A stretch of DNA of 63,381 nucleotides, counting the filler, from Reclinomonas americana ATCC 50394 (Eukaryota): NCBI GenBank assembly GCA_048213135.1. It is 19 parts of 19 records of this genome, joined end to end, with 100 filler letters (N's around TTAATTAATTAA, not from the genome) between each part and the next. Parts side by side here need not be neighbours in the genome. Positions count along the whole stretch, not along the records: positions 49,508 to 59,088 come from AFZH01019523.1; 18 more parts are not named here. One strand, given 5' to 3'. Shown piece after piece: positions 27,073-62,422 of this stretch. The notes under the pieces are model-generated. The model made no database searches. It was not told the origin of the DNA and worked only from the letters and a program-made list of their open reading frames with translations. The position numbers and the translations under genes are program-made. Each line of letters begins with the position of its first letter. The stretch's first letter is position 1.

Positions 27073-27076
27073 AAAA

Positions 27077-31211: not shown

Positions 31212-31312
31212 GGGGTCGACTTCCGCGGTGCAGGCTGTCGGTTCGAAAACCTGCCGAACTCCTGATGTGCTGAAGGAGCCCGAGCAGATCGCGACGATCT
31301 GGCATCCGCGGG

Positions 31313-31750: not shown

Positions 31751-31765
31751 GAACATATCATGAAC
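31751..31765. promoter_or_regulatory. Candidate alphaproteobacterial LexA (SOS) box
   Basis: GAAC-ATATCAT-GAAC matches the GAAC-N7-GAAC consensus exactly, in AT-rich context; target gene not visible. Confidence 0.5.
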
Positions 31766-31875
31766 AATCTGATTGNNNNNNNNNNNNNNNNNNNNNNNNN
31801 NNNNNNNNNNNNNNNNNNNTTAATTAATTAANNNNNNNNNNNNNNNNNNNNNNNNNNNNNNNNNNNNNNNNNNNN

Positions 31876-32487: not shown

Positions 32488-32518
32488 CGGCGGTTCGCCA
32501 GGCTGAACTGAGAGGGGG

Positions 32519-33319: not shown

Positions 33320-34327
33320 GAGCGCCTCCGGCTGGTCAGGATCAGGCTAAAGAAGAAGGGCACGCCGACCAGCGCGGTGACGATGCTGATCGGGAAGATC
33401 AGCCCGGGGATCAGCGATTTGCTGACCACCGAGGAGGCCGAGAGCAGGGCAGCGCCGGCCAGCGCCGAGGCCGGCAGGAAGAAGCGCTGGTCCTCGCCGA
33501 TCACCATGCGGGCGATATGCGGGCCGACCAGACCGATGAAGCCGATCGTGCCGACGAAGGAGACCGGCACCGCCGCGAGCAGGGCGACAAGCAGCATGGT
33601 CTCGAGCCGCAGGCGCCTGACGTCGATACCGAAGCTCGCCGCCTTCTCGTCGCCGAGCCGCAAGGTCGTCAGCGCCCAGGCCCGGCGCGCGAACAGCGGC
33701 AGGCAGAGCACGAGCACTGTCGCGGTGATGGCGAGCTTTTGCCAGTTCGCCTTGGTCAGCGAGCCCATCATCCAGAAGACGACGGCCCCCCAGCGCCTGC
33801 TCGGAGGCGAAGAACTGCAGCAGGGAGAGCAAAGCGTTGAAGGTGAAGACCAGCGCGATGCCGAGCAGCACCACCGTCTCGGTGGTGACGCCGCGGCGCT
33901 GGCTCAGCAGATGGATCAGCAGGGAGGCGCCCATCGCCATGACGAAGGCGTTGAGCGGCACGACATAGTCGATGGCGAGCGGCACGATGGCGACGCCGAA
34001 GACCAGCGCCAGCGCTGCGCCGAAGCTCGCCGCGGCCGAGATGCCGAGCGTGAACGGGCTGGCGAGCGGGTTGTTCAGCACCGTCTGCATCTGCGCGCCG
34101 GCGATGGCGAGCGAGGCGCCGGTGACGACCGCCATCAGCGCGACCGGCAGGCGGATGTCCCAGATCACCACCCGGACCGCGGCCGGCGCCGTCGAGGGCG
34201 AGATCAGCGCGTTGACCACTTCTGTCACGCTGTAGCGGGCCGGGCCGAGCATCAGGTCCACGATCAGGCAGGCCAGCAGCACGGCGGCGAAGCCGGCGAG
34301 GATCAGCTTGCGGCGCAGCGACAGCGC
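33313..34327 (-). CDS. FecCD-family ABC permease, 5'-truncated, with a +1 frameshift at 33786-33791
   Basis: WDIRLP, QTVLNNPLASPFTLGISAAA in one frame; FWMMGSL, LRLGDEKAASFG, GTIGFIGLVGPHIAR in the other. The switch is at a G6 run where G5 restores ALGAVVFWMMGSL. Confidence 0.88.
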
Positions 34328-34427
34328 NNNNNNNNNNNNNNNNNNNNNNNNNNNNNNNNNNNNNNNNNNNNTTAATTAATTAANNNNNNNNNNNNNNNNN
34401 NNNNNNNNNNNNNNNNNNNNNNNNNNN

Positions 34428-34634
34428 TACCTCCCTGTGCTCGTGCAGTCCGAGGTCGACGGTGCCGTAGACCGGGGGGGTCGAGACCAGCTTGTAGCAG
34501 GAGCCGCTGCCGCAATTGCTGACCGGTGCCCGGTAGCAGGAGGAGCTGGTGCAGCCGCCGGCGAGCGCCGGAGCGGCGAGGCCCATCAGCGCCGTGGTAG
34601 CGAGAGCCGAAAGCGAAAGAAACCTGAACGTCAT
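34428..34634 (-). CDS. Secreted Cys-containing hypothetical protein (3'-truncated)
   Basis: Signal peptide ending APALA, then CTSSSCY..CGSGSCYKLVSTPPVYGTV. Confidence 0.65.
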
Positions 34635-34881
34635 AGCTGACCCCAACCCTGCGTTGCGCAACGCTGCCGCTGCGTCGTTGGGGTAAGAAAGCCTGAGACG
34701 ATCTATGAAGACAAGGTTAACTGCAAAACAAGGTAAAATTAACCAGTTTTACGCGGGCCGCCGCCGTCTTGTCGGCCACCGGAATATGCACGCCGATCCA
34801 GTATTCGGCCTGTTTTCGGGCCGGCCTGCGCATGGTCACGCAGCAGAACCGGCCCTCCCTGGAGGCGGCTTTCGACTCCGA

Positions 34882-35187
34882 TCAGTCGATCGCGCCGCGC
34901 TTCATGCCGAAGCCTTCGATATAGCAGCTGCAAGGCGTGTTCGCCGGCGCCGGCCTGCTGGCCTCGCACGAGCCACGCGAGGTCACGCAGACATCGCTGA
35001 AGCGCTGGCGGTAGGGCCGCTCATAGCCATAGCGCGGGCGGTCATAGCCATAGGGCGGCGGCGGCCGGTCGTAGTCGTAGCGCGGCGCCGGCCGGTAATA
35101 GGGATCGTAATACTGAGCGTTCGCGCTGGTCGCGGAGGAGATCGCTGCGCCGACGAGGGCTGCGATCGCGAGGGTCCTGAACATCAT
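34882..35187 (-). CDS. Small secreted Tyr/Pro/Arg-rich protein with a four-Cys C-terminal motif
   Basis: RBS GGAG, signal peptide ending ANA, YDRP repeats, CVTSRGSC..CSC. Confidence 0.75.
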   Translation of the reverse strand: MMFRTLAIAALVGAAISSATSANAQYYDPYYRPAPRYDYDRPPPPYGYDRPRYGYERPYRQRFSDVCVTSRGSCEASRPAPANTPCSCYIEGFGMKRGAID

Positions 35188-35275
35188 GGCCGTTCTCCGG
35201 GCTTCCCTGGCCGGGGCTGGGACAGTTGATCCTCGGCACTCTAGGGCCGCATCGATGAACGCAGGCTGAGCGCGG

Positions 35276-36298
35276 TCAGCGGCTCAGCGCCTCGATGCTT
35301 GCGTCGATCGTGACGCACAGCCCGGCCGGGTCCCAGTCATATCGTACCTCCAGGCCTCGATGCGCTCTGATGGTGCGCTCGATCATGGTCGAGCCGAAGC
35401 CGCTGCGCACGGGTTGCGCCTCGATCGCCGGGCCGCCCGCTTCGCGCCAGAGAATTCGGCTGGCACGTTCGTCGCGATCCACCGTGACGGTCACCACTCC
35501 GGTCTGCGAGGACAATGCCCCGTACTTCACCGCGTTCGTCGCCAGTTCATGGACGATCAGGGCGATGCAGGTTGCTGCTTGCGGGCCAACCGGGCCGTCC
35601 TTGCCATCTATCCGGATTAGTTCGCCAGGGCCTTCCCGATAGGGCGCGAGCAGCCGGGAAAGCAGGTCGACGATGCCGCTCGCGGCATCGGTCCTGCTCC
35701 GGCCGACGAAGGCGTGGGCCCGGTGCAGCGCCGCCAGTCTCTCTTCGATCCTGGCGGCGAAAGCGCGGCTCTCCGGCTCGGAGCGGGCCGCCATCCGGAC
35801 AAGGCTGCTGACCACCGCAAAGATATTGGCGATCCGGTGCGAGAGTTCGCGGGCGACGAGTTCGTATTGCTCCTCGGCCTGCTTGCGCGCGGTGACGTCG
35901 ATATGAGCGCCCTGAAGCAGCAGTGCCGCACCATCGGCATCCCGCTCGATCTCCGCCTTGGCGAGGATCCAGCGTACTTGCCCATCGCTCGGCCGGATGA
36001 TGCGATATTCGACCTCGTAATCGGTCGAGCGGCCGCGAACGGTCTCGAGAAAATGGCCGAGGGCACGGTCCCGGTCATCGGGGTGGATGCGCCGGACCCA
36101 GGCCTCGTGAGTCTCGTGAACCGCCTCCGGCGGCAGGCCGTGGACGACGAGATATTCGGGCGAGCGGGTATTGCGGAATTGGCCGCCGCGCAGGTCGACG
36201 GTCAAGCCGCCGATCTGTCCGATCTTCTGGACGCGGGCAAGTTCGGCTTCGCGGGCCGCAAGGCGTTGTTGAGCGTCCGACGACCCATCCCGATCCAT
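35276..36298 (-). CDS. PAS/PAC-domain HWE histidine kinase
   Basis: IHPDD and YRIIRPSDGQVRW (PAS/PAC); ELSHRIANIF, HELATNAVKYGALS, WREAGGP, GFGS (HWE family). Confidence 0.92.
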   Translation of the reverse strand: MDRDGSSDAQQRLAAREAELARVQKIGQIGGLTVDLRGGQFRNTRSPEYLVVHGLPPEAVHETHEAWVRRIHPDDRDRALGHFLETVRGRSTDYEVEYRIIRPSDGQVRWILAKAEIERDADGAALLLQGAHIDVTARKQAEEQYELVARELSHRIANIFAVVSSLVRMAARSEPESRAFAARIEERLAALHRAHAFVGRSRTDAASGIVDLLSRLLAPYREGPGELIRIDGKDGPVGPQAATCIALIVHELATNAVKYGALSSQTGVVTVTVDRDERASRILWREAGGPAIEAQPVRSGFGSTMIERTIRAHRGLEVRYDWDPAGLCVTIDASIEALSR

Positions 36299-36393
36299 AC
36301 CAGACGCCTCTGCCCGCCGTTACGCGCAGAACTAAGGCAGGGACGCCGTGGATGCAAAGTCATTTGACAAGATCGTCCGGCCGCGGCGCTGCT

Positions 36394-37437
36394 TCAGCTG
36401 CCGGCCTTCATGCTCGCCGCCCAGTAGTCCTCGACCTGCCGGACCAGCGCCGGCGGCAGCGGGACATAGCCAAGAGCAGTGGCGTCGGCGGCGCCGCTTG
36501 CGAAGGACAGGCGGAAGAAGTCGAGCACCTCCTGCGTACGGCGCGTCCGTGGCTTCGGCACCAGAGCGAAGGTGGTGGCGACGATCGGATAGGCTCCCGC
36601 GCCCGGCGCGTCCGTCAGCATCAGCGAGAAATCCTTGGCCTTTGCCCACTCTGCGCTCGCCGCAGCCGCGGTGAAGCTCGCCTGGTCCGGCGTGACGAAG
36701 GCGCCGGCCTTGTTCTGCACCAGCGCATAGGCGAGGCCGGCACGCACGACCTGGCCGAATTCGGCATAGCCGATCGCGTTCTTGGTCGATTTCACCGCAT
36801 CCGCCATGCCCTGGCTGCGCTGCGCGCCAATGCCGACGGGCCAGGGAACCTGCGTGTTGACGCCGACCTTGTCGCGCCATTCCGGGCTCGCCTTGGCGAG
36901 ATAGTCGGTCCAGTTGAAGCTCGTGCCCGAGCCGTCGGCGCGGTAGATCACGTTGATCGGGGCATCCGGCAGTTTCAATTCGGGATTGACCGCCTTGATC
37001 GCCGGATCGGACCAGCGCTTGATCCTGCCCAGATAGATCTCGGCGAGGAGCGGGCCGGTGAAGCGGACCTGGCCGGGGCCGATACCGTCGAGGTTCACCA
37101 CCGGGACGATGCCGCCCATCACGATCGGGAACTGGATCAGAGCCGAGCGCTGCAGTTCCTCGGAGGAGAGCGGGCGGTCGGAGGCGCCGAAATCGGCGGC
37201 GCGCTGGGTGACGCGAACCTCGCCGCCGAGCGAGCCGATCGGCTCGTAGTCGACGCCGATGTCGAGCGGGGTCATCTCGGCGCCGTCCGACTTCGCGATG
37301 CGGTAGGTCTGGGCCCACTTGCCGATGATCGGAAAAGCGAAGCTCGACCCCGCGCCGGTGATCGGCTCGGCATGGGCGGGCGCCACGAAACAGGCGAAAA
37401 GAACGCCGGCCGCAGCCAGCTTGACCAGGAGCTTCAT
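36394..37437 (-). CDS. pstS: Phosphate ABC transporter substrate-binding protein PstS (stand-alone)
   Basis: ITGAGSSFAFP, DFGASDRPL, YRADGSGTSF, YPIVATTF. Confidence 0.92.
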   Translation of the reverse strand: MKLLVKLAAAGVLFACFVAPAHAEPITGAGSSFAFPIIGKWAQTYRIAKSDGAEMTPLDIGVDYEPIGSLGGEVRVTQRAADFGASDRPLSSEELQRSALIQFPIVMGGIVPVVNLDGIGPGQVRFTGPLLAEIYLGRIKRWSDPAIKAVNPELKLPDAPINVIYRADGSGTSFNWTDYLAKASPEWRDKVGVNTQVPWPVGIGAQRSQGMADAVKSTKNAIGYAEFGQVVRAGLAYALVQNKAGAFVTPDQASFTAAAASAEWAKAKDFSLMLTDAPGAGAYPIVATTFALVPKPRTRRTQEVLDFFRLSFASGAADATALGYVPLPPALVRQVEDYWAASMKAGS

Positions 37438-45878: not shown

Positions 45879-46112
45879 GGNNNNNNNNNNNNNNNNNNNN
45901 NNNNNNNNNNNNNNNNNNNNNNNNTTAATTAATTAANNNNNNNNNNNNNNNNNNNNNNNNNNNNNNNNNNNNNNNNNNNNCCCCTTCTCCCTTCTCCTTT
46001 CCCCCTCACCCTTTCCTCCTTCTCCCTTCCCCCTTCACCCTTCACCCTTCCCCCTTTCCCCTTCCCCCTTCCCCTTCCCCTCACGCCCTTTCCCCTCCCT
46101 TCCCCCTCGCAG

Positions 46113-47899
46113 CTCCTGGGCACCAGCGCGGACCTCTTCCGCATGGTCCCCATGGCCGTCTTCGTCATTGTGCCCTTCATGGAGCTGCTGCTGCCAATCT
46201 GCTTGAAACTCTTCCCCAACATGCTGCCGTCGACCTTCGAGGACAAGCTGAAAAAGGAGGAGGATTTGAAGCGCGCGCTCAAGGCCAAGCTGGAGCTGGC
46301 CAAGTTCCTGCAGGACACGGTGGAGGAGATGGCGACGCAGATCAAGGGTCCGCGTGCCGCCGAGGCCGCCGCTCTCCAGTCCTTCATTGAGGCTGTGCGT
46401 GAGGGCAAGACCGTCTCCAACGAGGACCTGCTGCGCTTCTCGCCGCTCTTCTCCGACGAAATCACTCTCGACAACCTGTCGCGTCCGCAGCTGGTGGCCA
46501 TGGCGCGCTTCCTCGGCCTGAACGCCTACGGCGCCGACGCCTTGCTGCGTTTCCGTCTGCGCAGCCGCCTGCGCCAGATCAACTCGGACGACAAGCTGAT
46601 TTGGTGGGAGGGTGTGGCGTCGCTCTCGGTGGAGGAGCTGACGCAGGCGTGTCTGGACCGCGGCATCAACACCAAGGGTGTGGCGCGCGCCAAGTTGCAG
46701 CGGGAGCTGCAGGAGTGGCTCGAGTTGTCGAACCAGAAGAGCGTGCCATCCACGTTGCTCATCATGTCGCGGGCGTTTGCCTTTACCTCGAGGTACTCCT
46801 ACTCCATTCGCTCTTCCTCGTTTCTTTGATTCTCCCTCACCTACCCCCTTCTTGCAGCACCTTCCGCGCCCTGCAGGAGACCATTGGCTCGCTCCCCGAC
46901 GAGGTCGTCGACTCGGTGCTCAGTGCCGACAACGAAGCCAAGCGTCGCGAGTCGCGCCTGGAGGCCATTCAGCGGCAGGAGGAACTGATTGCGGAGGAGG
47001 ATGAGCAGAAGCGCAAGAAGGCCGCTGCCGAGCACCACCATGTGCTGACCGAGCAGGAGGCCGTGGCTGCGGCCAAGGAGGCCGCCGAGACCGCCGAGCG
47101 GCAGGCCGAGCAGGCAGCGCAGGCGGCCAGCCTTCCGCCAGTGCCGTCTGCCGTGGAGTCACCAGTGGTGTTGTCATCGTCGTCGTCGGCGGCGTCGACA
47201 ATGGCGGCGGCGGAGACTGCTCCGTCAACCACTGCCACCATCACGGGCGATGCGGTAGCGACGACGGCGTCGACAGAAGACGATGCTGACGAGGAGGTGA
47301 CACTGACAAAGATTCGCGAGATCAGCGAGGCTGTGTCGGTGCTGGCCGCCGCCAGCGCCACGCTGCGCGAGTCGACCGAGTTGGAGGAGCTGAAGCGCGA
47401 TCGTGCCGACCTGCTGGCCTCGCTGCTGGCCACTCGTCTGTACCCGGACGCCGCGGAGACGGTGGATCCGGAGCTGCGCAAGCTGGGCGCGCTGGATCAG
47501 AAGCTGTCGCGCATGATTGTGAAGCTCGACGAGGAGATTCGCGCCGTCGACCGCCAGATCGGCACCGGCCTCAACCTGCTCGACAAGGACCGCGACGGTA
47601 TTGTGACGGTGCAGGAGCTGCAAATGGTGCTGTCGCTGCTGCGTGACCGCCCGAGCGACGACAAGGTGGTGGCGTACATTGTCAGCCGGCTGGATCCGGA
47701 CGGTGACGGCCGCGTGGTGCTCACCGAGCTGGAGTCGGCCATTGATCGGCTGGAGATGATGGAGGAGGAGGAGATTGAGGAGATTGATGTGGAGCCAAAG
47801 CAGGCGGTCGTGGCGGCTGAGAAGAAGGAGGTGGAGAAGCCGAAGAGACGGACGAAGAAGAGCAGCAGCAGCAGTAAGGCCAAGTCGGCCGCAGAGTGA
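46113..47899 (+). CDS. LETM1: LETM1 mitochondrial inner-membrane protein with C-terminal EF-hands (5' exons missing; intron 46793-46857)
   Basis: ADLFRMVPMAVFVIVPFMELLLPICLKLFPNMLPSTF, KLELAKFLQDT, FSDEITLDNLSRPQLVAM, DDKLIWWEG, WLELS..VPSTLLIMSRAF; EF loops DKDRDGIVTVQE and DPDGDGRVVLTE. Confidence 0.95.
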
Positions 47900-48102
47900 T
47901 TTGTTGTTGTTGTCGTAAGTGTTTGCTTGTTTGTTTGTGTGTGTGTGTGTTAGTGTTGTTGTTGTTTGCGTGTTTATAGTCGGCAGCGATGATGATGTAG
48001 TGGGCAGCGTTTCGTACTCAATTAAAAGCTGCAGTTGATGGGCAAGAGAAGGGGAGAAAGGGGAAGGGAGAAGGAGAAGGGAAAGGGGAAGGGAGAGGAA
48101 GA

Positions 48103-48136
<34 letters not shown>

Positions 48137-48174
48137 CACATGCAAACTTGATCATCAAGGCAGCTTATGGACGA

Positions 48175-49180
48175 ACAAGAGACATGCTACGCGGCACAGT
48201 ACGCGTGTGCATGTTACGCCTCTCTCACGTGGAATGGTGTCGCCTGAGAGGTCGCCTAGTGGTGTTAGCAGCCTACGCGACTCTCGCAGTGTCCATCTAT
48301 CTGTGGTATGGAACGGGGCATTCCGGTGATTCTTGCGTTCCAGGCCGATAAGGGAGAGAGAGAGAGGGAGGGATACAAGATAGCTTTGAATGCTGATACT
48401 GGAATTGCATTGGTCACAACGTCGGCAAGGAGAGGATTTTGCTTTGGATACGACGTCGCCTTCTGCGAGTAGACAGCTGGTTACGCTGTTTGGTAATTGT
48501 GGGTTGTGGCGAGCGCTGTGCGTACAAAAACACGCCTGCGTGTCCTTCAGGTCCTGATCAATCACACGTGTTCCGCTCAACGCACAAGACCATGCTACGC
48601 GGCACAGTACGCGTGTGCATGCTGCGCCTTTCCCGCGTGGAATGGTGTCGCCTAGGCGGCCGCCTAGTCGTCCTCGCAGCCTATGCCACCCTCGCAGTGT
48701 CCATCTATCTGTACATGTGGTACGGGACGGGCATTCCGGGGATTCTGGCGTTCCAGGCCGATAAGGGAGAGAGAGAGAGAGGAGAGGGAGGGATGCAAGA
48801 CAGCTTTGAATGCTGATATTGGAATTGCATTGGTCACAACGTCGGCATGAAGGAGATTTCAATATCTGGATTCAACGATGCCTCCCATGAATACAAAGCT
48901 TGCTTCGCCGTTTGGTAATTGTGGGTTGTGGTGAGCGCTGTGCGTACAAAGAGACGGCTGCGTGTCCTTCACGAGTCCTGCAATCACTCACACGTGTGTG
49001 TTCCCTTCCTCTCGCGACAATGTTACGCGGCACAGTACGCGTGTGCATGCTGCGCCTCTCTCGCGTAGAGTGGTGCCGCCTAGGTGGTCGCCTTGTGGTG
49101 TTAGCAGCCTACGCGACCCTCGCAGTGTCCATCTATCTGTGGTACGGGACGGGCATTCCGGTGATTCTTGCGTTCCAGGC
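48175..49180 (+). repeat. Three tandem copies (period 408 and 428 nt) of the upstream region plus first ~53 codons of the DHHC gene
   Basis: ATGs at 48184, 48592 and 49020 each begin MLRGTVRVCMLRLS; the inter-copy spacers are also homologous. Confidence 0.92.
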
Positions 49181-50496
49181 AGAGAGTATGCATCATTATC
49201 TGTGTCTGGCGTGGGCGTGGACGCAAGCGCTGTTGGGAGTGCCGATCTTTGGGAACATTGTGGCAAATTACGCCTTGGCGATATGGACGGATGCGGGGAT
49301 GCCGGGAGGTGAGGGAAGGGAGTGAGAGGGAGGGAAGGGGGTGAGAGAGAGAGAGAGAGAGAGAGGGAATCGAAGAATGTGATTGTGTTCATGCACTTCA
49401 TCATTGTNNNNNNNNNNNNNNNNNNNNNNNNNNNNNNNNNNNNNNNNNNNNTTAATTAATTAANNNNNNNNNNNNNNNNNNNNNNNNNNNNNNNNNNNNN
49501 NNNNNNNTGAGTCCGAAAGGACTCTGTCGTTTCGCTGACTGCTTTTTCCTCTCCCCGCGCGTTTTAGCTCCCGCCTGGTGTCACCGTCGACGACTTGAAC
49601 ACTCTCCGCTTCCTGTTCATCCTGTCGTGCACATTCGGTGGCATTCTCGGCGGCCTCGGCGTGTGGCACACGTACTTGTTGCTGACGGGGCAGACGACGT
49701 TGGAGTGGGTGGTGAATCGGGAGCGCAAGGCGCATACACCAGTTGCGTGGAAGAAGGGGAGGGTGGGGGAATGGAGAGGGAGAGGGGTAAGGAGTGGGGG
49801 AGGGGAGAGGGAGAGGGAGAGAGGGAGAGAGAGAGAGTGTGTGTGAGAGAGAGAGGGAGCAGGTGGGTTGGCCTATCCGGCCTGGACGCGAAAAATATTT
49901 GTCGACAAGGACTGCAAGCCTTCATCTGGTTGTGGGCGTTGTAGTTGTATGAGAAAGTCACAGGGAGTTGCTGGCCTGCGACGGTGTTCGAATTGTGGTC
50001 CTGAGTGTGTGTGTGTGAGAGAGAGAGAATGGTGACGAACGAGGGGGCACGGATGAGGACGAAGGATGTGCATGCTGCAGAAAGACTGAGAGAGAGAGAG
50101 AGAGAGCGAGAGCATGAGCGTGTTTGCACGGACCGCGATGGGGGGTGAGAGAGGAAGAAGATGGAGTGAGCTGTACAGACTGACAGAAACAAGTGAGAAT
50201 GAGAGAGAGGTGAGGGAGGAGGAGAACGGGTGAGCAATAATGACTAATCGTTGCAACACCGCTTCGTCGCAGAGCTACCGCAATCCTTACGACCGCGGCT
50301 GGAGACGCAACTGTGAACTGGTGCTGGGTCCGATGCGCAAGTTGCGTGACAGCATACCTCGCTTACGGATCCGCTGTCATAAACTCACACTCCCCCTCCA
50401 CTCGCCTCACGCAGTTGGTGGTTGGTCTACTGGGTGCCCGGGTACCGCGTCGATCCGCCTCGGGGCTCATCGTACACCACCGAAGAGTACGTTTAG
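49020..50496 (+). CDS. DHHC palmitoyltransferase (ZDHHC16-like), multi-exon, spanning a linker that hides the DHHC domain
   Basis: Exon 49020-49308 has two TMs ending NYALAIWTDAG (DPG-like motif). After the gap come GLGVWHTYLLLTGQTTLE (TTxE), YRNPYDRGWRRNCELVLG and a final exon ending at TAG 50496. Joining across the gap is inferred. Confidence 0.75.
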
Positions 50497-50574
50497 GCGG
50501 CATGCGTCGACCGCAAACAAGATGATTTCCCAGTGTAGACATAGTGGGTTGCGTGGAAAGCACGATACGGGCAA

Positions 50575-51100
50575 CCAAGCAGCAGCAGGTGGTGTCTCGC
50601 AGGTATTGTAACCATCTCTGAAGACGTGAACGCCGACGTCGGAATGCAGCGGGTAGTCAAACAACAGCAGGTGGTGTCTCATCTCGGAGGACGTCGTCGC
50701 CGACGTCGGAATGCAACGTGCAATCAAGCAACAGCACAGGTATTACCACCATCTCGGCTGACGTGCCGACGTCGGATTGCAACCTCCTTTCTGCTCGCCA
50801 GAACCATAGATGACGTGCATGGCCAAGGGTGAGACTGCGCCTCCTGCGCTTCTCCGACGCCACGAGCAATCGTCGGCGTCGGAGCTGCAATGTCGAACTT
50901 GCTTCCTCGGCGTCTCTACCATCTCTGATGTCGTGCATGTCGCCGGAGAGCAGCAAGTTCCACTGTTTTGCCAACTTCGCCTACTGACCGTATCTCCACC
51001 ACCTCTGAAGTTGTGCACGTCGCGACGTGCGGCGACTGCTGCCGGTTGCAAATCGAGCTTTTCCCTTGTATTCGCTCCGTCTCCGAAGTTGCGTACATGC
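50575..51100. repeat. Degenerate tandem repeat containing three perfect CCGACGTCGG palindromes
   Basis: Palindromes at 50633, 50700 and 50766 (spacing 67 and 66); a related CATCTC(T/G)G..ACGT motif recurs to about 51100. Confidence 0.7.
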
Positions 51101-51205
51101 ATGTTGCAGCAGCAAGAGAGAGTTATGACAACTTCAATACCGAACTCGTGTCCTCTGAGGAACATTGCAAACGAACTCTTCCTTGAGCGCGTGTCTCTCA
51201 GTCTC

Positions 51206-54200
51206 ATGGCACTTGAGTCTCGTGGAGTCTTCCTCAACGCCACTGGAGAAGAGTGGCTTGCGCAGGACAGCGATGATGATGATGACGACGAAGGAACAAG
51301 CATGCAGAAGGCGCGAAAGAAGCCTTCTGCGGGTACAATGAGTGCGGAGCAAGTCTGGCAGCGCGTGCTCAATGTTGAGTGAGAGGAGAGAGAGAGGGAG
51401 AGGGAGGGAGGGAGGGAGGGAGGGGGGAAGAGAGAGACAAGTGCGTGCAAGTGTGTGCAAGTGTGTGCAAGTGTGTGTATGTGTGTGGAAGTGTGTGGAA
51501 GTGTGTGGAAGTGTGTGCAAGTGTGTGGAAGTGTGTGGAAGTGTGTGGAAGTGTGTGCAAGTGTGTGAGTGTGTGCGAGTGTGTGCAAGTGTGTGCAAGT
51601 GTGTGCGAGTGGTGTGCAAGTGTGTGCAAGTGTGTGGAAGTGTGTGGAAGTGTGCGCAAGTGTGTGGAAGTGTGTGCAAGTGTGTGGAAGTGTATGCGAG
51701 TGAGAGAATGACTGCAGATTGCAAATCAGTGACTGTTAACAGTGATTTTCCTGTCTCACTCACTCTCACCCTCTCTCTCTCTCTCAGTGGAACTGGAAAG
51801 ACGTTTTCCGCGCTGTTCTCCCCGACGATATCAACCGTGCAGACAACATTCAAGTTTTCTCATCCTTTTTTTTGTTATTGTTGTTATCAGTCTTCACTTG
51901 TCTCTCATCTCTTGTCGCCGGGAAACAGCTGGAGGGTCCTCTCGTGCTGCAAGTCGGTCGCATTCGCAATGTGACTGCGCCTGCGCATGCGCAGGATCGT
52001 GAGCCGGCACTGTTGCAGGTATCGTTGACCGATGGGCATATCATTACGCATGGAGTCTCGTATGGAAGGTTCGACGAGCAAGGAGGAGAGAGGGAGAGTG
52101 TTGACGGGCGTGACTCACTTGCGTTGTTTTGGTGTGCTGCATGCAGTCTCGGGAAAGAGATCACGTGAGTCGCTTGTGAGGGATGAGTCGCTTTTTCTTG
52201 TTGGTGCATCCCTCCTTGTCGCTCCTCTCGCTGCTCTCGCTGCTCTCGTTGCTCTCGCTGCTCTCGCTGCTCTCGTTGCTCTCGCTGCTCTCGCTGCTCT
52301 CGCTGCTCTCGCTGCTCTCGTTGCTCTCGCTGCTCTCGCTGCTCTCGCTGCTCTCGCTGCTCTCGCTGCTCTCGTTGCTCTCGCTGCTCTCGCTGCTCTT
52401 GCTGCTTACGCTGCTCTCGCTACTCTGGTTGCTCCCTCTTGCTAGCTGCTCACTCTCTCGCTCTCTCTCTCTCTCTCTCTCGCTCGCTCTTCGCTCCCCC
52501 TTTGCCTTCCTCACCAACTATCATGCTCCTGCTAGCATCAACACACCCCCCGGCACCAAGGTCGAGCTGCGGGGCGTGACGGTGCGAAATGGCACATTGT
52601 TGCTCACGCCGAGTTGCATCCGCGTGGTGGGCGGCCGCGTCAAGGATCTGTACGAGGCGTGGGCGTTGAAGCGGGTTTGTGTACATTGATTTGTGGCGTG
52701 TGCGTGCATGTCGTGCTGATCATGCGCGTGGTTGCCAGGAACACGGTCGACTTCGTGGTCACTTTTCCGTCAAGGCCGCCGAGGCGTACGAAGCCACAGC
52801 TGCGGCTGCGCAAGGAGCCAGTGGTTCGGCGGCGCCCGTGGCTGGTGGACCGCCGCCGTTCAAGCCCCTCCCCAAGGTGCGTCGTGCTCATAGGCTCTTG
52901 TTCTTCTTTTCATTCATCCTGTCGGCCGCGCAGGGCATGCTGGGGCGCAAGATTCCGCTCGCGCAAACTTCCTTTGTCGGCACCGGCTACCAGGGGCAGC
53001 GAAAGCCGCTCACGGTCAGGGAGGAAACGTGCAGGAGATTGTCCATCGCATGTTCGCCCCTCTCACCCGTCTTGCTGCAGGGCTGGAACGCCTCGGGCAG
53101 CAGCACCGAGCCTGGTGGCTCTGGCTTGGCGTCGACGACGCCCGCGCAGCCTGGGAAATCTGCGTCTGTGCCACCTCCGCCGCCGCCACCGTCGCGCCCC
53201 ACCAACAAACCAGCCGGAGGCAACGACCGTGATCACGACGACGATGATGACGATGACGGGGACGACGAAGGCAAGCGCCTTAGTGGCTCGGTGCGCGGAC
53301 CGCCCAGTGCACGCGGCAAAGTTGGTGCGCTCGAAGAGTTGTGTTTACTGTCGCACGCATGTGCACGTCGCTCACAGCTGTATTGCTGGCGCAGGTTTTG
53401 AGAGTCAGCGAGGGGGTCGTGGTGGTCGCGGTGGTGAGTGAAGAGGGGAAGGGCGACAAGTTGTGAGGGTAGAGAACAAGAGCAGGCGCTTTCCGATTGG
53501 AGGAAGGGGACAATAAGTCGAGGGACGCAGAGGGAGAAAGCATGTGAGGGACGCGGAAGGAGATAGGCGGTGAGGATCGCAGAATGAGAAAATCTGTGAG
53601 AACAGAGAACGAGTATGGCAGCGAGGATCGCAGAAGGAGAGAGCCAGTGAGTAGCAGAGAAGGAGTACGATATTTATGAAGGCAGAAGACAAAATCTGTG
53701 GAAGCCTGTGACGAGGAACAGAGAAGGCGAAAGGGAGTGAGGAGAAGCCGGCGACGGATGAGGGGATGAGGGAGAAGAAGAAAGAAAGTTGATTACTTAC
53801 CGGCGTGAGAGCCAGGAGAGGACAAAGAGAGTTGGTCGTGTCGAGTGAAGGAGACAGAACTGAGTGGATTCCGTCGCAAGGCAGTTGGTTGCTGACCTCA
53901 TTCTTTCAGGTCGAGGTGGCCGTGGACGCGACCGTCCATTCAGTGCTGATTACCGAGGCGGAGCGGTGCAGCGTTTCGTATTTTCCTGCGAATGTACCTG
54001 CTGTGAATCATGACTCACTATATGCACACGCAGTGACAATGCAGGAGCATGCGAATTACTGTTGCGTCGCTTGGAATCGAGGAACACTCTGTATGCTGTG
54101 TTGCTCATCTCTCCGATAACAACAACAGCGACCCTCGAGTCCATGGGCTTTGTGGATCGCGATCAGTCCGCCGAGGCTCTGCGGAGGGCCGATGGCAACC

Positions 54201-57200
54201 TGCAGCAGGCGATCGAGCTGCTCGTCAGCGGCGCGGTGGTGCGTGTTTCCTTGGCATGACCTTATACAAAGCATGCTGACTGATGGCGTCTTACCGCAGC
54301 CGGAGGGTCCACAGATTGGCGCTTTCGACGGTGGCGACGACGACGACTTTGGCGTCGAGGATGACGGTTACTTGGGCGGATCGGGACGGGGTGGGCGTGG
54401 CGGGCGCGGTCAGAGATTCGAGCGGCGGCCGCGAGGAGGTGGCGGTGGTCGAGGTGGACTTGGTGGAGGTCGGCAGGAGTTTGACGGTGGGCGGCGACCA
54501 CAGTCGGCGCCGTATGCGCGAGATGATGAGGGGGCGGTGAGGCGGAAGCGGGGGAGAAGGGGTGGAGAAGAAAAGCAGTGATTGACACATTGCGTAGCAG
54601 CAGGCTCGCCCTGGTGGTGCACCGCGGCCTCCTCCTCCTCCGCCGCCGCCTCCTCCTCCTCCTCCCTCGAAGCCGGCGGCTCCGCCTCCGTCGTCGTTGG
54701 ACGCGGGGCGTGCGCTTGATTTGAGCGCTGCGGCATTTGTTCCGCGGAGATCTGATGTGCCGTCGCTGATTCAGGAGATGGTGAGTCGTTAGAATACGGC
54801 GTTTGTGTAGCAGCAATCTCAGTGCCGTGGTCGGTAGGCTGCGGCAAGCAATCAGTTTCAGCAATCGAGTCGGAGAGGTGCGTGCGTGGTGGAGGGTGAA
54901 TTCGATTTTGGCGTGCTTTGTTGAGATCTTGATGCGTTTTTTAATGTGACAAGGTGGCCGAGGCGGTCAGCATCACGAAGGCAAGTGTTCATGAGGGGGT
55001 TCGATGCGTAACTTCAACTTTTGCAACTCACTTCCCACGTTGTGCAGGCGGACGAGGCGGCCAGCAGTACCAAGGTGTGTAGTCGCCTGCTTTCAGAACC
55101 GAAGTCAACGCTTACCCTCTGCTCGTTGCGAAGGTGAACGAGGCGGTCAGTACCAACATGGTGAGCTGCCCGACAGTTTTCGATACTCTCCTTGTTGAAA
55201 CTAGTCTTTCTGTGTGGCGCAGGTGGACGTGGTGGTCAGCACTACGAAGGTGTGCAGTCGTCTGCTCGCAGCATATCTCACTTGTCTACTCTCACATTCG
55301 GCTTGTTGCAAAGGTGGTCGAGTAGGTCAACATTTCGAGGGTGAGCTGCTGCTGACGACCACAACACCGCCTCCTTGTCGAAACTTACCTTTCTCTGTGG
55401 CGTAGGTGGACGTGGCGGTCAGCACCAACGTGGTGAGTGCTTCTCGCTCATCAAGGCGGCTTTCACTTTCGTCTCTCACTGACGTGACAGACGACCGACC
55501 AGGAGCGCAACAGCAGCAGGGAGGAGCACCGCGGCCGCAGAGTTGCGTTGCTTGTGTTTTGTGTATTCCAGGTACGGGTGCTGAGTGTTGGCGACAGTTG
55601 CTGGTGCACCGCCGCCGCCACAACAACAAGAACAGCAGCAGCATCAAGGAGGTGGAGGAAACCGCGCCCCCCGGCCACAGAGTTGCGACTGTGTGGCCTT
55701 CATTGTTGCTTTGTGTGTGGGTTGCTTAGTGTCTGTGACAGGTGCTGGTGCTCCGCCGCAGCAGCAACAGCAGGCACCACCGCAGCAGCAACCACCACAG
55801 CAACAGCACCAGCAACAGCAGCAGCAACAACATGGAGGAGGAAACCGCGCTCCCCGGCCACAGAGTTTCGATAAGTGGCCTTGATTCCTGCTTTGTGTGT
55901 GGTTTGCTTAGTGTCTGTGTCAGGTGCTGGTGCGCCGCCGCAGCAACAGCAAGCGCAGCCGCAGCATCAAGGAGGTGGAGGTCGCGCTCCTCGACCAGAG
56001 AGTTACGTCTGATTGGCCTTGCGTGCCACACTGTGTGTTGCTTGCTGAATGTCGGCGATAGGTGCTGGCGCGCCGCCGCAGCAGCAACAGCAGGCACCAC
56101 CGCAGCAGCAGCAGCAGCAGGGAGGAGGAAACCGCGCTCCCCGGCCACAGAGTTACGACTGCATGGTCTTGATTGTTGCTTTGTGTGTGGGTTTCTTAGT
56201 GTCTGTGTCAGGTGCTGGTGCGCCGCCACCGCCACCTCCACAGCAACAGCAGCAGCAGGGAGGTGGAGGTCGCGCTCCTCGACCACAGAGTTGCGTCTGA
56301 GTGGTTCGTGCATGACATTGCGTGCTGGATACTCACTTCCGCCTCTCGTAGGTGCTGGTGGGCCTCCGCAGCCGCATTCACAGCAGCAACCAGCGATCAA
56401 CGTTCAAGAAGCTCAATTGCCGCAGCAAGGTTTGTGGTAAGAAGGGTGAATCCGAGATGCGTCCTTGTGAATTGACGGGCGATTGCAGATCGTGGTGGCG
56501 GTCGTGGTGGTCGCGGCGGGCGTGGTGAGACTGGGCGTTGATGATCATGTTCTCGGTTGTCGTTTTTCACACCGTGTGTACAGGTGGGCGTGGAGGCCAG
56601 CATCATCAAGGTTGATCTTGTTGCGTGTGTATGTGCGCTCTTGGTGAGACGCTCATCCCTTCGCACAGGTCGCGGTGGTGGTGATGGCGGTCGCAGCGAG
56701 CTGCAACAGCCGCAACAAGCAGGTCTGTCCGTGTTTCTCATGATGCACATGCTGCTCTGCAGTGACATTATGTCGTTGTTTCTCCAAAGGACGCGGTGAC
56801 CAGCAGCCACAGCAGCAACGACAAGGAGGTCTATCCGTGTCTCTCATGATGCGCATGCTGCTCTGCAGTGACATTATGTCGTTGTTTCACCACAGGACGC
56901 GGTAACCAGCAACCACAGCCACAACAAGCAGGTTCGTCCGTGTCACTCATGATGCACATGCTGCTTGCAGTGACATAATGTCGTTGATTCTCCGCAGGTC
57001 GCGGTGACCAGCAACCACAGCAGCCACGACAAGGAGGTTTGTGTGCGACAACCGCAATGTTTTCCGTGGTTTGCTCACTCACTGTTCTGGGTTTCGTGCA
57101 GGACGAGGTGGTGAGCAGTAGTAGCAGCGCATGCACACCTAATGGCGACGCAGATTAGCAAAGTCCTGACCGGAGAACGATGCACACAAGTACCGTAGTG

Positions 57201-57649
57201 TCACACAACAGCCTGCACAGCAGAGAATCAGCAATCACATCGTCACACAGCACAGCTCACGCGTGTGTTGTGTGTCATGGATTCATTGTTCTTGATTTCA
57301 TGCAGGGCGTGGTGGTGACCAGCAGTCACCGCAGAATTCGGGTTTGTGCCGTGTGTGCGTGCTTCGTGTGTTTCAGTGCCCGATCTTACCGCTTTCGCGC
57401 CACAGGTCGTGGAGGCGGTGGTCATGGCGGAGGCAAGTGTGGTTGTTGTTCCGCCTGTGCGGTCCTCAAACTCAAGGAGTGTACTTGCAGGTCGTGGTGG
57501 GCGAGATTGGCTGCCATCTCAGCCAGCGCCAGAGCAGCAAGGTGGGATCGCAGGTGCATGGAAGAGAGGAGTGCGATTGTTTGACATGCGGTTTCTTGTG
57601 CATAGGCGCGGCGGGATCATCGCAGGCGGGTCGGCGTGCAGAGTTTTGA
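51206..57649 (+). CDS. TDRD3: TDRD3-like protein: RMI1-type OB fold, UBA domain and long RGG/Q-rich tail; highly fragmented into exons
   Basis: Spliced peptides VLPDDIN, LEGPLVLQVGRIRNVTAP..LQVSLTDGH, INTPPGTKVELRG..NGTLLLTP..VVGGRV..LYEAWALKR, GGPPPF and UBA LESMGF..AEALRRADGNLQQAIELL follow TDRD3 order. No Tudor domain was recognised. Confidence 0.8.
51440..51695. repeat. 10-bp minisatellite GTGTGTG(C/G)AA in TDRD3-like intron 1
   Basis: About 25 tandem units read directly. Confidence 0.92.
52225..52430. repeat. 9-bp minisatellite G(C/T)TGCTCTC in a TDRD3-like intron
   Basis: About 22 tandem units; produces spurious ALA/LLS/SES ORFs. Confidence 0.92.
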
Positions 57650-58696
57650 GTGGGCGTGGAGAGAGAGTGGAGCGACAACAATAGTACTTTCTCCAACAAA
57701 GGCTTTCTAATGTTTTTGTCCAGCGTGTGTGCTTTTGAGCAGCTTTTTCTTGTGCGCAGGCGGGACGGCGTGCAGAGTTCTGTGTTGTTTGCAGCAGCAG
57801 CAGCAGCAACAACAACAACAACAACAACACACTGCACGGCAGTAACTGCTGACACTGGCTCTGCTTTCACGCAACCAGCATGTCTTGCACGTTCTTCCCC
57901 TCCACCGCCATCACTGACATAATGACGACAACGACAACACTGTGTCTGTGGTCAACGTCGCCTTCAACCCACAGTCCTCTTGTCTCGGTCATCGGTCAGT
58001 GGCTGCCTTGTTGAAATCACTCCTGCTGCAACAACAATGACAGCAACAATAACAGCTGAGCATGCCGCCTGCTCATGCCACCACCAATACGAGCCTCACC
58101 AAACCCATGACTGGCTCTCTTTTGTTCAACCACACCACAAATGACGACGCCTCCGCTGCTTTGCTATGCTCGCATCACGGATTCGGACCGGCTTGGCTTC
58201 GTTTGCCTTCCCGAATTCGCTGTGCCGTGTATGATCGCGATCTGCCCGACAAGTCGGCTGCTGCTCGGTTTCCGGCCATATATTGACAGGAATTGGCTGT
58301 TTCGCGCCTTTCCTTCTCTGACGCTGCATCCGGTATCAGATCCACGGCAAATCGTATATGCGAAATCCTTTCGAGGCCAACACGCGTTTGATTAGCTTTG
58401 CCTCCAAAGGGAAGATGACTGTTAGAGAAGAGTAGTTGTGTGTTTTGCATATTGTTGGTGTGCCAAGGTCATCGGCAAGGTATTTGTGGGCGTTTGTCGC
58501 ATTCCAATGGAATGTGGTGAATGTGTATTTTGTTGTTGAATCTGCCCGACATTCCCGACAAACACGACCTACCCGACAGCCTTGACAACATTTCGACGGG
58601 ACACGCTTCATTCCCGGCTATTTCTGACAAGTCTATCTTTGCACACACACACTCATTTTATCTTTGCCTTCTGAGCGAACGCCACCTCCCTCATTG

Positions 58697-59088
58697 ATGT
58701 GGGCCAACTCTGACCCTTATTCTGCTCCCCCGCTGGCGTTGGCGCTCGCGAATGTCCCGCTGAGCGCACACAAGTTGATTGAGCCTGCGGCCGGGAGGAG
58801 AGGCTTCAAGCCCTCGAAGCGCAACCTGCGCGCTGTTGCGACGCGATGGATGTCAGCGTGCATGGAGGTGTGGCTGTGTGTGTGTGTGTGTGAGAGAGAG
58901 AGCATGGATGATTCACCTCTCTCTCTCTCTCTCTCTCCTTCATCAATAGTACTGGTCCCTGCAGCTGGACGAGGCTGATGCGGAGGAGGCGGTGACTGAG
59001 GCGCTCAAGGCGCTCTCTTCTGACAGGCGATATGTGCGGACCGACCTGGCCGCTCACTTTGGCATCCGCAACCAAGACCTCTTCAACT
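58697..59088 (+). CDS. Hypothetical eukaryotic gene, first two putative exons (3'-truncated)
   Basis: MWANSDPYSAP..SACME, a GT..CAG microsatellite-containing intron, then in-frame LDEADAEEAVTEALKAL.. Confidence 0.5.
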
Positions 59089-59441
59089 NNNNNNNNNNNN
59101 NNNNNNNNNNNNNNNNNNNNNNNNNNNNNNNNTTAATTAATTAANNNNNNNNNNNNNNNNNNNNNNNNNNNNNNNNNNNNNNNNNNNNGGCAAAGGTGTT
59201 TTCTTTAGTCTTATAGTGCGTGCGGCTTCCACGTCTTCTTCTCCTCTCATTATGCAGCAGCTGGACTTCACCCCTTGAAGCACGGAGAAGTGCGACGAGA
59301 GGAGCGAGCATGCGTTGGAGAGGAGTAGTGAGATGGAGTCGTCGACGGTGATGTTTAATGGGTCGGGTGGCGGTGTACAGTGCCGTGATTGAAACGAGGC
59401 AAAGGTGTTTTTCGTGTTTTACATAACACTTTCTCCTCCCG

Positions 59442-60533
59442 TCACAAGGCACCCTCTAGAAAGCATCGACGATCAACAACCTCCGCCTCCTCGACCAGGA
59501 AGCAGCGCAGTACGATCTCCACCAAGCACCACCGATCCTCCTCTTCTTCTGCCTTCTCCTCGGCCTCCTGCACGGCGCACATGGCCCGACGCGCCGTGTC
59601 GAGCTCCTGCCGCGCGAGGCCGTACGGCGTCGACCACACGCGCACGGACTTGTCACGACTGCCACTCACAATGCACTGACCGTGGGGGGCGACGGCGACG
59701 CACAACGCCGTAGCCGTGTGTCCCTCCAGCCGACGCACCTCCTCTCCACTCGCCAGCGACCACACGCGCACCGTGCCATCTTCGCTGCCGCTCACAACGT
59801 GCCGGCCATCGGCGGTGACGGCGACAGATATCACTCTCTCCGTGTGTCCACTCCACCGTCGCACCTCCTCGCCCTCCTCGCCACCCGTTGCCAGCGACCA
59901 CACACGCACAGTCTTGTCGAAACTGCCGCTCACGACGTGCCGGCCGTCGGGCGTAAAGGCGACAGATATCACTCTCTCCGTGTGTCCACTCCACCGTCGC
60001 ACCTCCTCGCCCGTCGCCAACAACCACAGCCGTACACTCTGATCGCCACCTCCGCTCACCACGTGCACCCCGTCGCGGGTGATGGCGAGCGTGTTTACAA
60101 AGTGCCTTGGTGGCCACTCCAATCGCCGCACTTCCTCTCCACTCGCCAGCGACCACACTCGCGCAGCAGCTGGACATCCGCTCACCACGTGCTGCCCGTC
60201 GGGAGTGACGGCGACTGCAAACACATAACGCTCGTGTCCCTCCAATTGCCGCACTTGTTCTCCACTCGCCAGCGACCACACTCGCACAATCTTATCCGCG
60301 TGTCCACTCACAACATGCTGCCCGTCGGCACTAAAGACCACGGACAGCACCCTGCCACGGTGTCCCTCCAGTCGTCGCACCTCGTCGCCACTCGCCAGTG
60401 ACCACACACGAATGGTGGTGTCGAAGCTGCCGCTTGCAACGTGCTGACCGTCGGGAGAGACGGCGATGCAATACACGTCGACGGTGTGCCCCAGCAGGCT
60501 TTTGCAGGGGAGAGTGGGGGGCGGAGAGGTCAT
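59442..60533 (-). CDS. Intronless WD40 repeat protein (7 repeats plus acidic C-terminal tail)
   Basis: Seven GH..V..V..PDG..VVSG..D..VRVW units; likely start MTSPPP at 60533. Confidence 0.92.
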   Translation of the reverse strand: MTSPPPTLPCKSLLGHTVDVYCIAVSPDGQHVASGSFDTTIRVWSLASGDEVRRLEGHRGRVLSVVFSADGQHVVSGHADKIVRVWSLASGEQVRQLEGHERYVFAVAVTPDGQHVVSGCPAAARVWSLASGEEVRRLEWPPRHFVNTLAITRDGVHVVSGGGDQSVRLWLLATGEEVRRWSGHTERVISVAFTPDGRHVVSGSFDKTVRVWSLATGGEEGEEVRRWSGHTERVISVAVTADGRHVVSGSEDGTVRVWSLASGEEVRRLEGHTATALCVAVAPHGQCIVSGSRDKSVRVWSTPYGLARQELDTARRAMCAVQEAEEKAEEEEDRWCLVEIVLRCFLVEEAEVVDRRCFLEGAL

Positions 60534-60775
60534 GGGGAAGAGAGAAGAGGAGGAGAAGAGCAGAAGCAGCACACAGTGCACGCTCGAGCTCGAGAGACTG
60601 ATATGATTGCAATGGCCGGATTGGGACAAAGAAGTCGAAGTTGAGCGATCCATGTTGGGTACATTGACAGGCAGAAGCACCCAGCTACATAAACGTAGCG
60701 CAACAAGAAACACAAAGAGACAACAACAGAAAAGGAAATCCTCTCCCACTCTGCTTCCCAGAATTCTCTATCTCG

Positions 60776-61226
60776 TCACAGACGGAGACTATCGTCCGCG
60801 GCACATCGATTGACGATGACTTCGGCCTCCTCGACCAGGAAGCAGCGCAGTACGATCTCCGCCAGGCACCGCGGATCTTCTTCATCCTCGTCTTCCTCGC
60901 CCTCCTGAAGCATCTCCTGCACGGCGCGCATGGCCGTCTTCGCGCATGCAAGCTCCTCTCTCGCTAACGCGTATGGCGTGGACCACACGCGCACAGAGCC
61001 ACCATAACTCCCGCTCATAATTCGCTGACCATCGGGGGTTACAGTGACAGTGCGCACCGGCGCAGTGTGTCCCTCTAGCCGTCGCCATTCAGCTCCACTC
61101 GTCACTGACCACACTCGCACTGACTGGTCATAGCTCCCGCTTACAACGTGGCGACCGTCACACGTGAACACAACCGACATAACCCACGAAGTGTGTTCAA
61201 ATCGCTGCATCTCTCGCCCACTCTCG
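60776..61226 (-). CDS. Paralogous WD40 repeat protein (5'-truncated)
   Basis: Two WD repeats and the same tail VRVWSTPY.LAR.EL..CL.EIVLRCFLVEEAEV. Confidence 0.88.
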
Positions 61227-61326: not shown

Positions 61327-62422
61327 AGGAGAAGGAGAAGATGGACTGAGTGAGAGAGGTTGTGCTGCAACAACAAGTGTAGCCGGCGCAATACCGCAAT
61401 CCAATTTGTGATAGTTGTTGTTAGACATACTGAGGTTTCTGAAGTAGAACGATCAGGAGCCAACTCATTTCAATCTCGTCGTCTCCAATCGTTCTACTTT
61501 TATTTGCTTGTTCTGAGCATAGGCAATACATTGTAGCATTCAGACTTTTCGTCTCTCTCATCGCAAGTCCACCACTCCACCCGCCCACCACCATGTCTCT
61601 TGCCCCCATTTGTTGGTGACTGATCGTCACGGAAGAAAGTACATGCGCACCACTCGCACTCAACCGACCAACAAACTCCTCGCACAAACACACTCGCCCA
61701 CCGCGAATGAGCACATGGGTACCCGACTGGGATCTCGCTGAAGACATCATCGCACCCTCCATGGCCGAACGACGCGCCTCATCCTCGTCAGCAGCAGCTC
61801 GTCTCGCAGTCGCTGATGCACTGTTTGGCGCCTCAGAAGAAGCAGAAGGAGAAGAAGATGATGGACTGAGTGAGTTTGTGCTGCAACAAGTGTAGCCGAC
61901 GCAATACCGCAATCCAATTTGTACATGCGCACTCCTGCTCAACCGACCAACAAACTCCTCACACACAAGCCCACCGCGAATGAGCACATGGGTACCCGAC
62001 TGGGATCTCGCTGAAGACATCATCGCACCCTCCATGGCCGAACGACGCGCTTCCTCTTCATCAGCAGCAGCTCGTATAGCAGTCGCTGATGCACTGTTTG
62101 GCGCCTCAGAAGAAGCAGAAGGAGAAGAAGATGATGGACTGAGTGAGGCTGGTGCTGCAACAAAAGTGTAGCCGACGCAATACCGCAATCCAATTTTGTA
62201 CATGCGCACTCCCGCTCAACCGACCAACAAACTCCTCACACACTCGCCCACCGCGAATGAGCACATGGGTTCCGGACTGGGATCTCGCTGAAGACATCAT
62301 CGCACCCTCCATGGCCGAACGACGCGCTTCCTCTTCATCAGCAGCAGCTCGTATAGCAGTCGCTGATGCACTCTTTGGCGCCTCTGAAGAAGCAGATGAT
62401 GATGGACTGAGTGAGGTTGTGC
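61327..62422 (+). repeat. Tandem copies (period 273 and 277 nt, plus a partial copy at the contig start) of a gene's upstream region and first ~56 codons
   Basis: ATGs at 61707, 61980 and 62257 each begin MSTWVPDWDLAEDIIAPSMAERR; a 3' remnant of another copy lies at 61327-61410. Confidence 0.92.

Follow-up and report, generated by a model that had tools for sequence, protein, structure and literature searches.

Seven 27-nucleotide blocks in a TDRD3-like gene

In a DNA stretch of 63,381 nucleotides (the window), joined from pieces of the genome assembly GCA_048213135.1 of Reclinomonas americana ATCC 50394, seven blocks of exactly 27 nucleotides (nt) lie on the plus strand of the contig AFZH01019523.1. 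The blocks are probably coding micro-exons of a gene for a TDRD3-like protein, and each would supply one nine-residue unit of the form G-G-R-G-G-Q-x-x-x. The units would have arisen by tandem duplication of exon-plus-intron cassettes, by unequal recombination with break points in the introns, and the most likely default is that all of them are included in the messenger RNA.

Six of the blocks form an array and the seventh lies downstream. The first block (54954..54980, exon 14 of the gene model described below) encodes GGRGGQHHE and is preceded by an AAG acceptor and followed by a GC donor (gcaagt). The second (55048..55074, exon 15; CAG acceptor, GT donor) encodes GGRGGQQYQ, the third (55134..55160, exon 16; AAG acceptor) GERGGQYQH, and the fourth (55223..55249, exon 17; CAG acceptor) GGRGGQHYE. 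The fifth (55314..55340, exon 18; AAG acceptor) encodes GGRVGQHFE and is the most diverged copy, with 7 to 12 differences from each other copy. It is followed by the sixth (55406..55432, exon 19; TAG acceptor), which encodes GGRGGQHQR, and the seventh (56584..56610, exon 28) encodes GGRGGQHHQ. An earlier note on this DNA had placed seven AG-flanked micro-exons of 27 nt here, and the sequence bears this out: AG precedes all seven blocks and GT follows six of the seven, the first being followed by GC. The peptides listed in that note for the six array blocks are reproduced by phase-1 translation, and the intron lengths of 59–67 nt that it gave agree with the five spacers within the array (67, 59, 62, 64, and 65 nt). 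The array is also hidden from an open reading frame (ORF) track, as had been remarked, since no plus-strand stop-to-stop frame of more than 80 amino acids crosses it. Tandem Repeats Finder (minimum score 30) did not report the array. A degenerate 19-nt motif matches only the seven block sites in the window and none of 100 dinucleotide-preserving shuffles, a test of specificity that is circular because the motif was written from the copies themselves.

The differences among the seven copies are concentrated at the third codon positions of the claimed frame. At the first, second, and third codon positions, 3, 4, and 9 of the 9 sites vary, with 30, 24, and 106 pairwise differences, respectively. 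When the columns were permuted, P was 7e-5 for the claimed frame and 2.6e-4 if any frame was allowed. Among the pairwise codon differences in the GGRGGQ core, 55 are synonymous and 12 non-synonymous. A third-position excess is also found in a second array of the same gene, in which the last 34 nt of exons 20–25 show 85 pairwise differences at the third position versus 39 and 29 at the other two.

The sequences flanking the blocks behave differently. The flanking spacers measure 76, 67, 59, 62, 64, 65, and 58 nt; none of the seven is a multiple of three, whereas the block length is constant in all seven cases. An in-frame stop codon interrupts six of these spacers, and the remaining one would shift the frame. 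Translation of the blocks as claimed would therefore require splicing. The spacer lengths within the array are in line with the other introns of the gene, 29 of 32 introns being 56–76 nt long. The T fraction alternates as well: it ranges from 0.04 to 0.26 in the six array blocks (15% overall) and from 0.26 to 0.38 in their spacers (31% overall; Mann–Whitney p = 0.0017), and the exon/intron contrast in T over the whole gene is significant at p = 1e-10. On the grounds of the third-position differences, the constant length, the AG and GT/GC flanks, and the T alternation, the blocks can be read as phase 1-1 coding exons, as the earlier note proposed. The gene model described below also connects them, with no break of frame, to domain-coding exons upstream and a stop codon downstream. 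We consider it likely that they are genuine coding micro-exons translated in the claimed frame, and hence predicted to be spliced.

The claim that the exons were conserved while the introns had diverged holds for the encoded peptide; at the DNA level, the contrast is only partial. The mean pairwise identity of the six array blocks is 72%, and spacer pairs range from 43% to 71%, compared with 49% (standard deviation 3%) for shuffled spacers. Spacers 2/4 and 3/5 are still 69–71% identical. Within the seven copies, all nine third codon positions are variable, as opposed to 7 of the 18 first and second positions.

Relationship to TDRD3

The blocks belong to a gene model of 33 exons (51206..57121, plus strand; ATG at 51206, stop codon TAG at 57119-57121) with a predicted TDRD3-like product of 908 amino acids (aa), which was built outward by hand from Pfam-matching single-exon translations. 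According to its domain composition, the predicted product is a TDRD3-like protein that has kept the OB-fold and the UBA domain and carries an RGG/Gln tail in place of the Tudor end. Exon 4 (52536..52674, plus strand) encodes the C-terminal half of an OB-fold of the RMI1_N/DUF1767 type (Pfam RMI1_N_C, 46.9 bits against a cut-off of 23, E 3.1e-12). A central UBA domain is encoded by exon 10 (54045..54238, plus strand; 28.1 bits against a gathering cut-off of 22.4, E 1.8e-6). The spliced N-terminus is 37–45% identical to TDRD3-family representatives over about 135 residues, where the spliced protein was compared locally with the fetched proteins only. The first two exon junctions are crossed without a gap in six of the seven relatives aligned. 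A GGPPPF motif after the OB-fold is a further likeness to the fetched animal TDRD3 sequences.

A HMMER scan of the OB-fold exon against 1.84 billion representative sequences retrieved 139 proteins at E <= 0.001, none of them with more than 62% identity. The named relatives are animal TDRD3 (Lingula, Umbra) and hypothetical proteins of Volvox, Micractinium, Gloeochaete, and a MAST-4 stramenopile. Both animal representatives tested have the OB-fold together with UBA and Tudor domains, whereas all seven non-animal or unnamed representatives tested have the OB-fold without UBA or Tudor, one of them with an additional NUDIX domain. The gene described here differs from the animal representatives in its RGG/Gln tail and in the C-terminal Tudor domain, a reader of methyl-arginine: no Tudor or SMN_Tudor match at E <= 5 was obtained in eight plus-strand frames from 57159-58975, a frame-based search that a Tudor domain split over many small exons could escape. 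RGG-rich C-terminal tails are present in several of the fetched algal and protist homologues. TDRD3 is the scaffold of topoisomerase III-beta (TOP3B), to which it binds via this N-terminal region, and localises to stress granules (PMC5296760, PMC2536506).

Of the 32 introns in the model, 31 are of the GT-AG type and one is GC-AG; the three outside the length range given above measure 414, 467, and 476 nt and are full of microsatellites. The donors are GTT (15), GTG (13), GTC (3), and GCA (1), and the acceptors CAG (22), TAG (6), and AAG (4). The first four introns use GTT donors of the kind also seen in the tail. As the first introns share this donor and the spliced N-terminus aligns with the TDRD3 family, an artefact confined to the tail does not explain the GTT donors. 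Their occurrence in 15 of 32 introns, including the first two, homology-backed ones, suggests that this organism has an unusual preference at its 5′ splice sites.

Alternative readings of the blocks

Several points weigh against the interpretation of the blocks as micro-exons of this gene. A longest-chain test for open phase-1 symmetric exons (dynamic programming with GT/GC..AG sites, introns of 50–80 nt, and exons of 18–130 nt) failed to separate the real from shuffled sequence: the longest chain comprised 22 exons on the real strand, 19 on the reverse strand, 19.4 on average in 30 shuffles (maximum 24), and 8–24 in other parts of the window. Because the shuffles reach equal lengths, the existence of an open chain of 19 exons proves nothing. 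Exon 13 (54838..54877, plus strand, 40 nt), which takes the reading frame from phase 0 into phase 1 before the array starts and thereby links the array to the upstream exons, has the model itself as its evidence. Micro-exon 1 requires a GC donor, and micro-exon 5, the most diverged unit, has Val in place of a core Gly. A three-base periodicity of GGN that was maintained for a DNA-level reason would give a similar codon-position pattern, although no such reason is apparent. In the N-terminal part, the exon 3/4 junction coincides with an insertion or deletion in six of the seven alignments, and this boundary may be a few residues off. In addition, the contig belongs to a mixed bin of short contigs, and metagenome, genome-contig, and protein searches revealed no orthologous locus.

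The ease with which open symmetric-exon chains can be drawn through shuffled sequence would suit an explanation in which the blocks are no exons at all. The gene would then end near 54790 or run into a decaying pseudo-tail, and the DNA further downstream would be a G-rich, three-base-periodic, non-coding tandem repeat. A stop codon three codons past the donor at 54781 makes a shorter protein possible, and the dependence of exon 13 on the model points in the same direction. The third-position differences (P = 7e-5) and the ratio of 55:12 synonymous to non-synonymous differences in the core are hard to reconcile with non-coding DNA, however, as are the strict length of 27 nt beside variable spacers, the alternation in T content, and the AG and GT dinucleotides, which are conserved beside variable neighbouring positions. 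The RGG-rich tails of several algal and protist homologues imply that a tail of this kind is to be expected in the family. We therefore regard this explanation as unlikely.

It is less probable still that the number or order of the units results from a mis-assembly of repeats or that the contig is chimeric. In favour of this, the contig comes from a bin of short contigs in which bacterial and eukaryotic DNA are mixed, and tandem repeats are prone to collapse during assembly. The copies differ at 4–12 of 27 positions, though, and most spacers are near random identity, so that they are too diverged to be collapsed or joined wrongly. Frame, composition, and intron style are moreover continuous over the 5.9 kb of the gene.

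As to related loci, a metagenome scan with the UBA exon returned one weak match (43% over 30 residues at a contig end), which is not a relative. A genome-contig scan with the OB-fold exon found no relative, and a word-indexed protein search with the same exon, covering longer proteins only, gave no match at E <= 0.001. A 22-nt motif derived from units 4 and 6 produced six single matches in a genome-contig scan, all of them in high-GC contigs of bacterial metagenome-assembled genomes; as there was one match per locus and no array, they were taken as chance matches. Literature searches combining RGG with micro-exons, exon duplication, or symmetric exons yielded no RGG micro-exon array among the matches listed.

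Proposed origin and inclusion of the cassettes

With the micro-exon interpretation preferred, the internal similarity of the array offers a view of its history. Three successive two-exon stretches of the array align at a mean column identity of 72%, and most of the conserved columns belong to the exons or the intron ends. The acceptors in the array alternate between AAG and either CAG or TAG, and the donors alternate in type. The six tandem units are thus best taken as a two-exon cassette present in three copies. The disordered tail of 485 aa as a whole (22% Gln, 22% Gly, 15% Pro, 11% Arg) may have grown likewise, from three cassette families. All predicted junctions fall behind the first base of a codon, usually one for Gly: the RGG cassettes have G|GN, the Gln/Pro cassettes A|GT. 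With this split at each junction, every cassette is phase 1-1, and a gain or loss of copies would always remain in frame. In the model, exons 14–32 are 19 consecutive phase 1-1 exons with nine distinct lengths, all multiples of three: 27 (seven times), 51, 84, 123, 78 (three times), 90, 36 (twice), 54, and 39 nt (twice). With introns of about 60 nt, pairing of the splice sites probably takes place across the intron, and an exon of 27 nt would then be unproblematic.

The spliced protein is predicted to contain 22 RGG triplets. Those in the array are nine residues apart, i.e., with six residues in between, and unit 5 has RVG instead. A Tri-RGG motif is defined as three RGG with 0–4 residues between them; the spacing in the micro-exon array is wider than this. 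Other parts of the protein do contain Tri-RGG runs, at residues 331 and 827.

The in-frame skipping of any subset of units, which had been pointed out before, follows arithmetically from the unit length of 27 nt and phase 1-1. AAG acceptors and GC donors are generally regarded as weaker splice signals. Units 1, 3, and 5 hold three of the four AAG acceptors of the gene (32 acceptors in total), and unit 1 has its sole GC donor, an alternation of weaker and stronger sites as would be expected of an alternative cassette. The units might accordingly be regulated cassettes, subsets of which are skipped in frame to give isoforms with zero to seven RGG-aromatic units and altered RNA binding or condensate partitioning. 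Tropoelastin, whose junctions are likewise all phase 1:1, is extensively alternatively spliced (PMC12554196). All seven copies are under purifying selection, the odd-numbered ones included, and constitutive use accounts for this no less well. The alternating acceptors are equally explained by inheritance from a two-exon ancestral cassette, and the symmetric phase is an automatic result of cassette duplication, for which no selection for skipping is needed. Regulated skipping is unlikely, and constitutive inclusion of all units is the default that we favour.

A more specific proposal is that the Tudor end has been replaced by an RGG tail with one exon per unit and that skipping in steps of 27 nt dials the valency of an RNA-granule protein, with the weak AAG and GC sites of units 1, 3, and 5 as the switch points. 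We hold this to be improbable. If true, such a dial could be read directly as a ladder in reverse transcription PCR (RT-PCR). The dependence of the number of RGG units on the number of exons is directly testable: isoforms would differ in steps of 27 nt, and a single exon junction would lie within every tryptic peptide.

Comparison with known repeat-encoding genes

The exon design is not a new principle, judging by analogy with tropoelastin and other genes with one exon per repeat. All splice junctions of tropoelastin are phase 1:1, which permits cassette-like splicing without a change of frame (PMC12554196). Its small exons supply one module apiece to a self-associating protein of low complexity, a layout that the modelled gene resembles, and the consecutive symmetric exons of one phase, with lengths in multiples of three, recur in the 19 phase 1-1 exons of the model. 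In other respects, the two differ. Tropoelastin, to which the present gene has no sequence relationship, is a matrix protein that vertebrates secrete; its modules are hydrophobic and cross-linking ones, and its alternative splicing is documented. The tail described here, in contrast, would belong to an intracellular TDRD3-like protein, is rich in RGG, Gln, and Pro, and has introns of about 60 nt.

The micro-exon genes (MEGs) of Schistosoma provide a second parallel. Their exons of 6–81 bp are mostly multiples of three, and alternative splicing has been considered as a way in which their proteins could vary; their introns range from 100 to approximately 5000 bp and their products are secreted (PMC10526429). 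Runs of very short symmetric exons that are hard to annotate automatically are common to both, the present gene having seven exons of 27 nt as well as exons of 36 and 39 nt. However, MEG exons are not simple tandem copies of a single unit, whereas those of the present gene are paralogous copies of one RGG unit in an otherwise ordinary gene. The introns around the micro-exons are 58–76 nt long, and the N-terminus is an OB-fold and not a signal peptide, unlike the long introns and secreted products of MEGs.

One exon per repeat is also found in the PEVK region of titin and in the 54-bp exons of fibrillar collagens. In titin and in the alternative exons of the GY-rich regions of the heterogeneous nuclear ribonucleoproteins (hnRNPs) A and D, exon inclusion alters the length or valency of a disordered region. 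These are different proteins of animals, with long introns and documented alternative use. If the model holds, the gene described here would be a very clean example of the growth of a disordered repeat tail by cassette duplication, which would have occurred three times in one gene. The coding content of such genes would be invisible to ORF-based gene calling, and the contig would have gone unrecognised in a bacterial bin.

Further exons of the gene model

The disordered tail begins with exon 11 (54300..54536, plus strand), which encodes an acidic stretch followed by RGG repeats. Exon 12 (54598..54780, plus strand) is proline-rich and has a triple acceptor, TAGCAGCAG (54595-54603), in which the three AG are all in frame; their alternative use would add or remove one or two Gln residues. 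Exon 12 also encodes the peptide LDLSAAAFVP (54690-54730), and a similar stretch, LNPNAPAF, is located near the end of one fetched stramenopile homologue. The peptide resembles a PAM2 motif for binding of the poly(A)-binding protein, a likeness that we take as a lead only; no Pfam match at E <= 5 was obtained for it.

Downstream of the micro-exon array, a second cassette array (55491..56429, plus strand) comprises exons 20–26 of 51, 84, 123, 78, 90, 78, and 78 nt, all phase 1-1. They encode Gln/Pro-rich units, most of which end in ...RAPRPQ, and are separated by introns of 56–62 nt with GTT donors. For 55804-56304, Tandem Repeats Finder reported repeat periods of 138 nt and 150 nt. The introns of this array (55542-56351) begin with GTTGCG, GTTTCG, or GTTACG and do not have the usual G at position +5.

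Exon 27 (56489..56524, plus strand, 36 nt, phase 1-1) encodes RGG repeats in succession. The stretch 56669..57036 on the plus strand holds exon 29 (54 nt) together with exons 30–32 (39, 36, and 39 nt), which make up the third cassette array. Each exon of the third array encodes one unit of the RG(D/N)QQPQ type, and a period of 106 nt was found at 56715-57042. The introns of the third array (56723-56997) are 66–67 nt long and about 86% alike, with a long conserved core beyond the needs of the splice signals. Their likeness probably stems from recent duplication; an element within the introns that has a structural or regulatory role is possible. The terminal exon 33 (57102..57121, plus strand) ends with the stop codon TAG (57119-57121). 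Two of the long introns of the model contain microsatellites, namely (CAAGTGTGTG) repeated about 27 times at 51438-51702 and (TCGCTGCTC) repeated about 24 times at 52219-52495.

Composition of the window

The window consists of 19 pieces of 1.3–9.6 kb each, joined by 18 spacers of the form N44-TTAATTAATTAA-N44 (e.g., 1841-1940, 49408-49507, and 59089-59188). The micro-exon array is situated in the longest piece (49508-59088; 9581 nt, G+C 0.57). Pieces within 17000-36999, the part searched (G+C 0.63–0.68), match one contig of a 6.4-Mb bacterial genome at 95–100% identity and in the order of this reference, with approximately 6–12 kb of the reference absent between most consecutive pieces. The array region has no match in the bacterial genome that matches the 17000-36999 pieces. 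The outer pieces of the window have a G+C content of 0.53–0.60 and are eukaryotic in appearance. The piece 49508-59088 is a eukaryotic contig within a mixed, fragmentary bin of bacterial and eukaryotic DNA.

A neighbouring contig carries a gene for a LETM1/EF-hand mitochondrial exchanger (45981-47896) with a conserved stretch of 215 aa without interruption. Its frame shares no more than 60% identity with any member of a collection of 5.8 billion protein sequences. The best named matches are from the heteroloboseans Willaertia and Naegleria (56–57%), and plants and fungi are about equally close. As far as the sequence of this gene is concerned, its divergence indicates a poorly sampled eukaryotic lineage, and the LETM1 contig may come from another organism than the array contig.

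Among the other eukaryotic pieces, tandem repeats were found at 48171-49180 (period 422 nt, 2.4 copies) and at 61651-62396 (period 277 nt, 2.7 copies, 93% matches), and a further piece contains a long frame with WD40 repeats (59445-61225, minus strand). At the start of the array contig, a frame (49568-49843) resembles, as judged by eye, the C-terminal part of a DHHC-type palmitoyltransferase. The region 48001-58000 shows a strong positive GC skew of 0.08–0.25 on the plus strand; for the array contig, this is consistent with the G-rich coding-strand codons (GGN, CGN, and CAG) in the tail.

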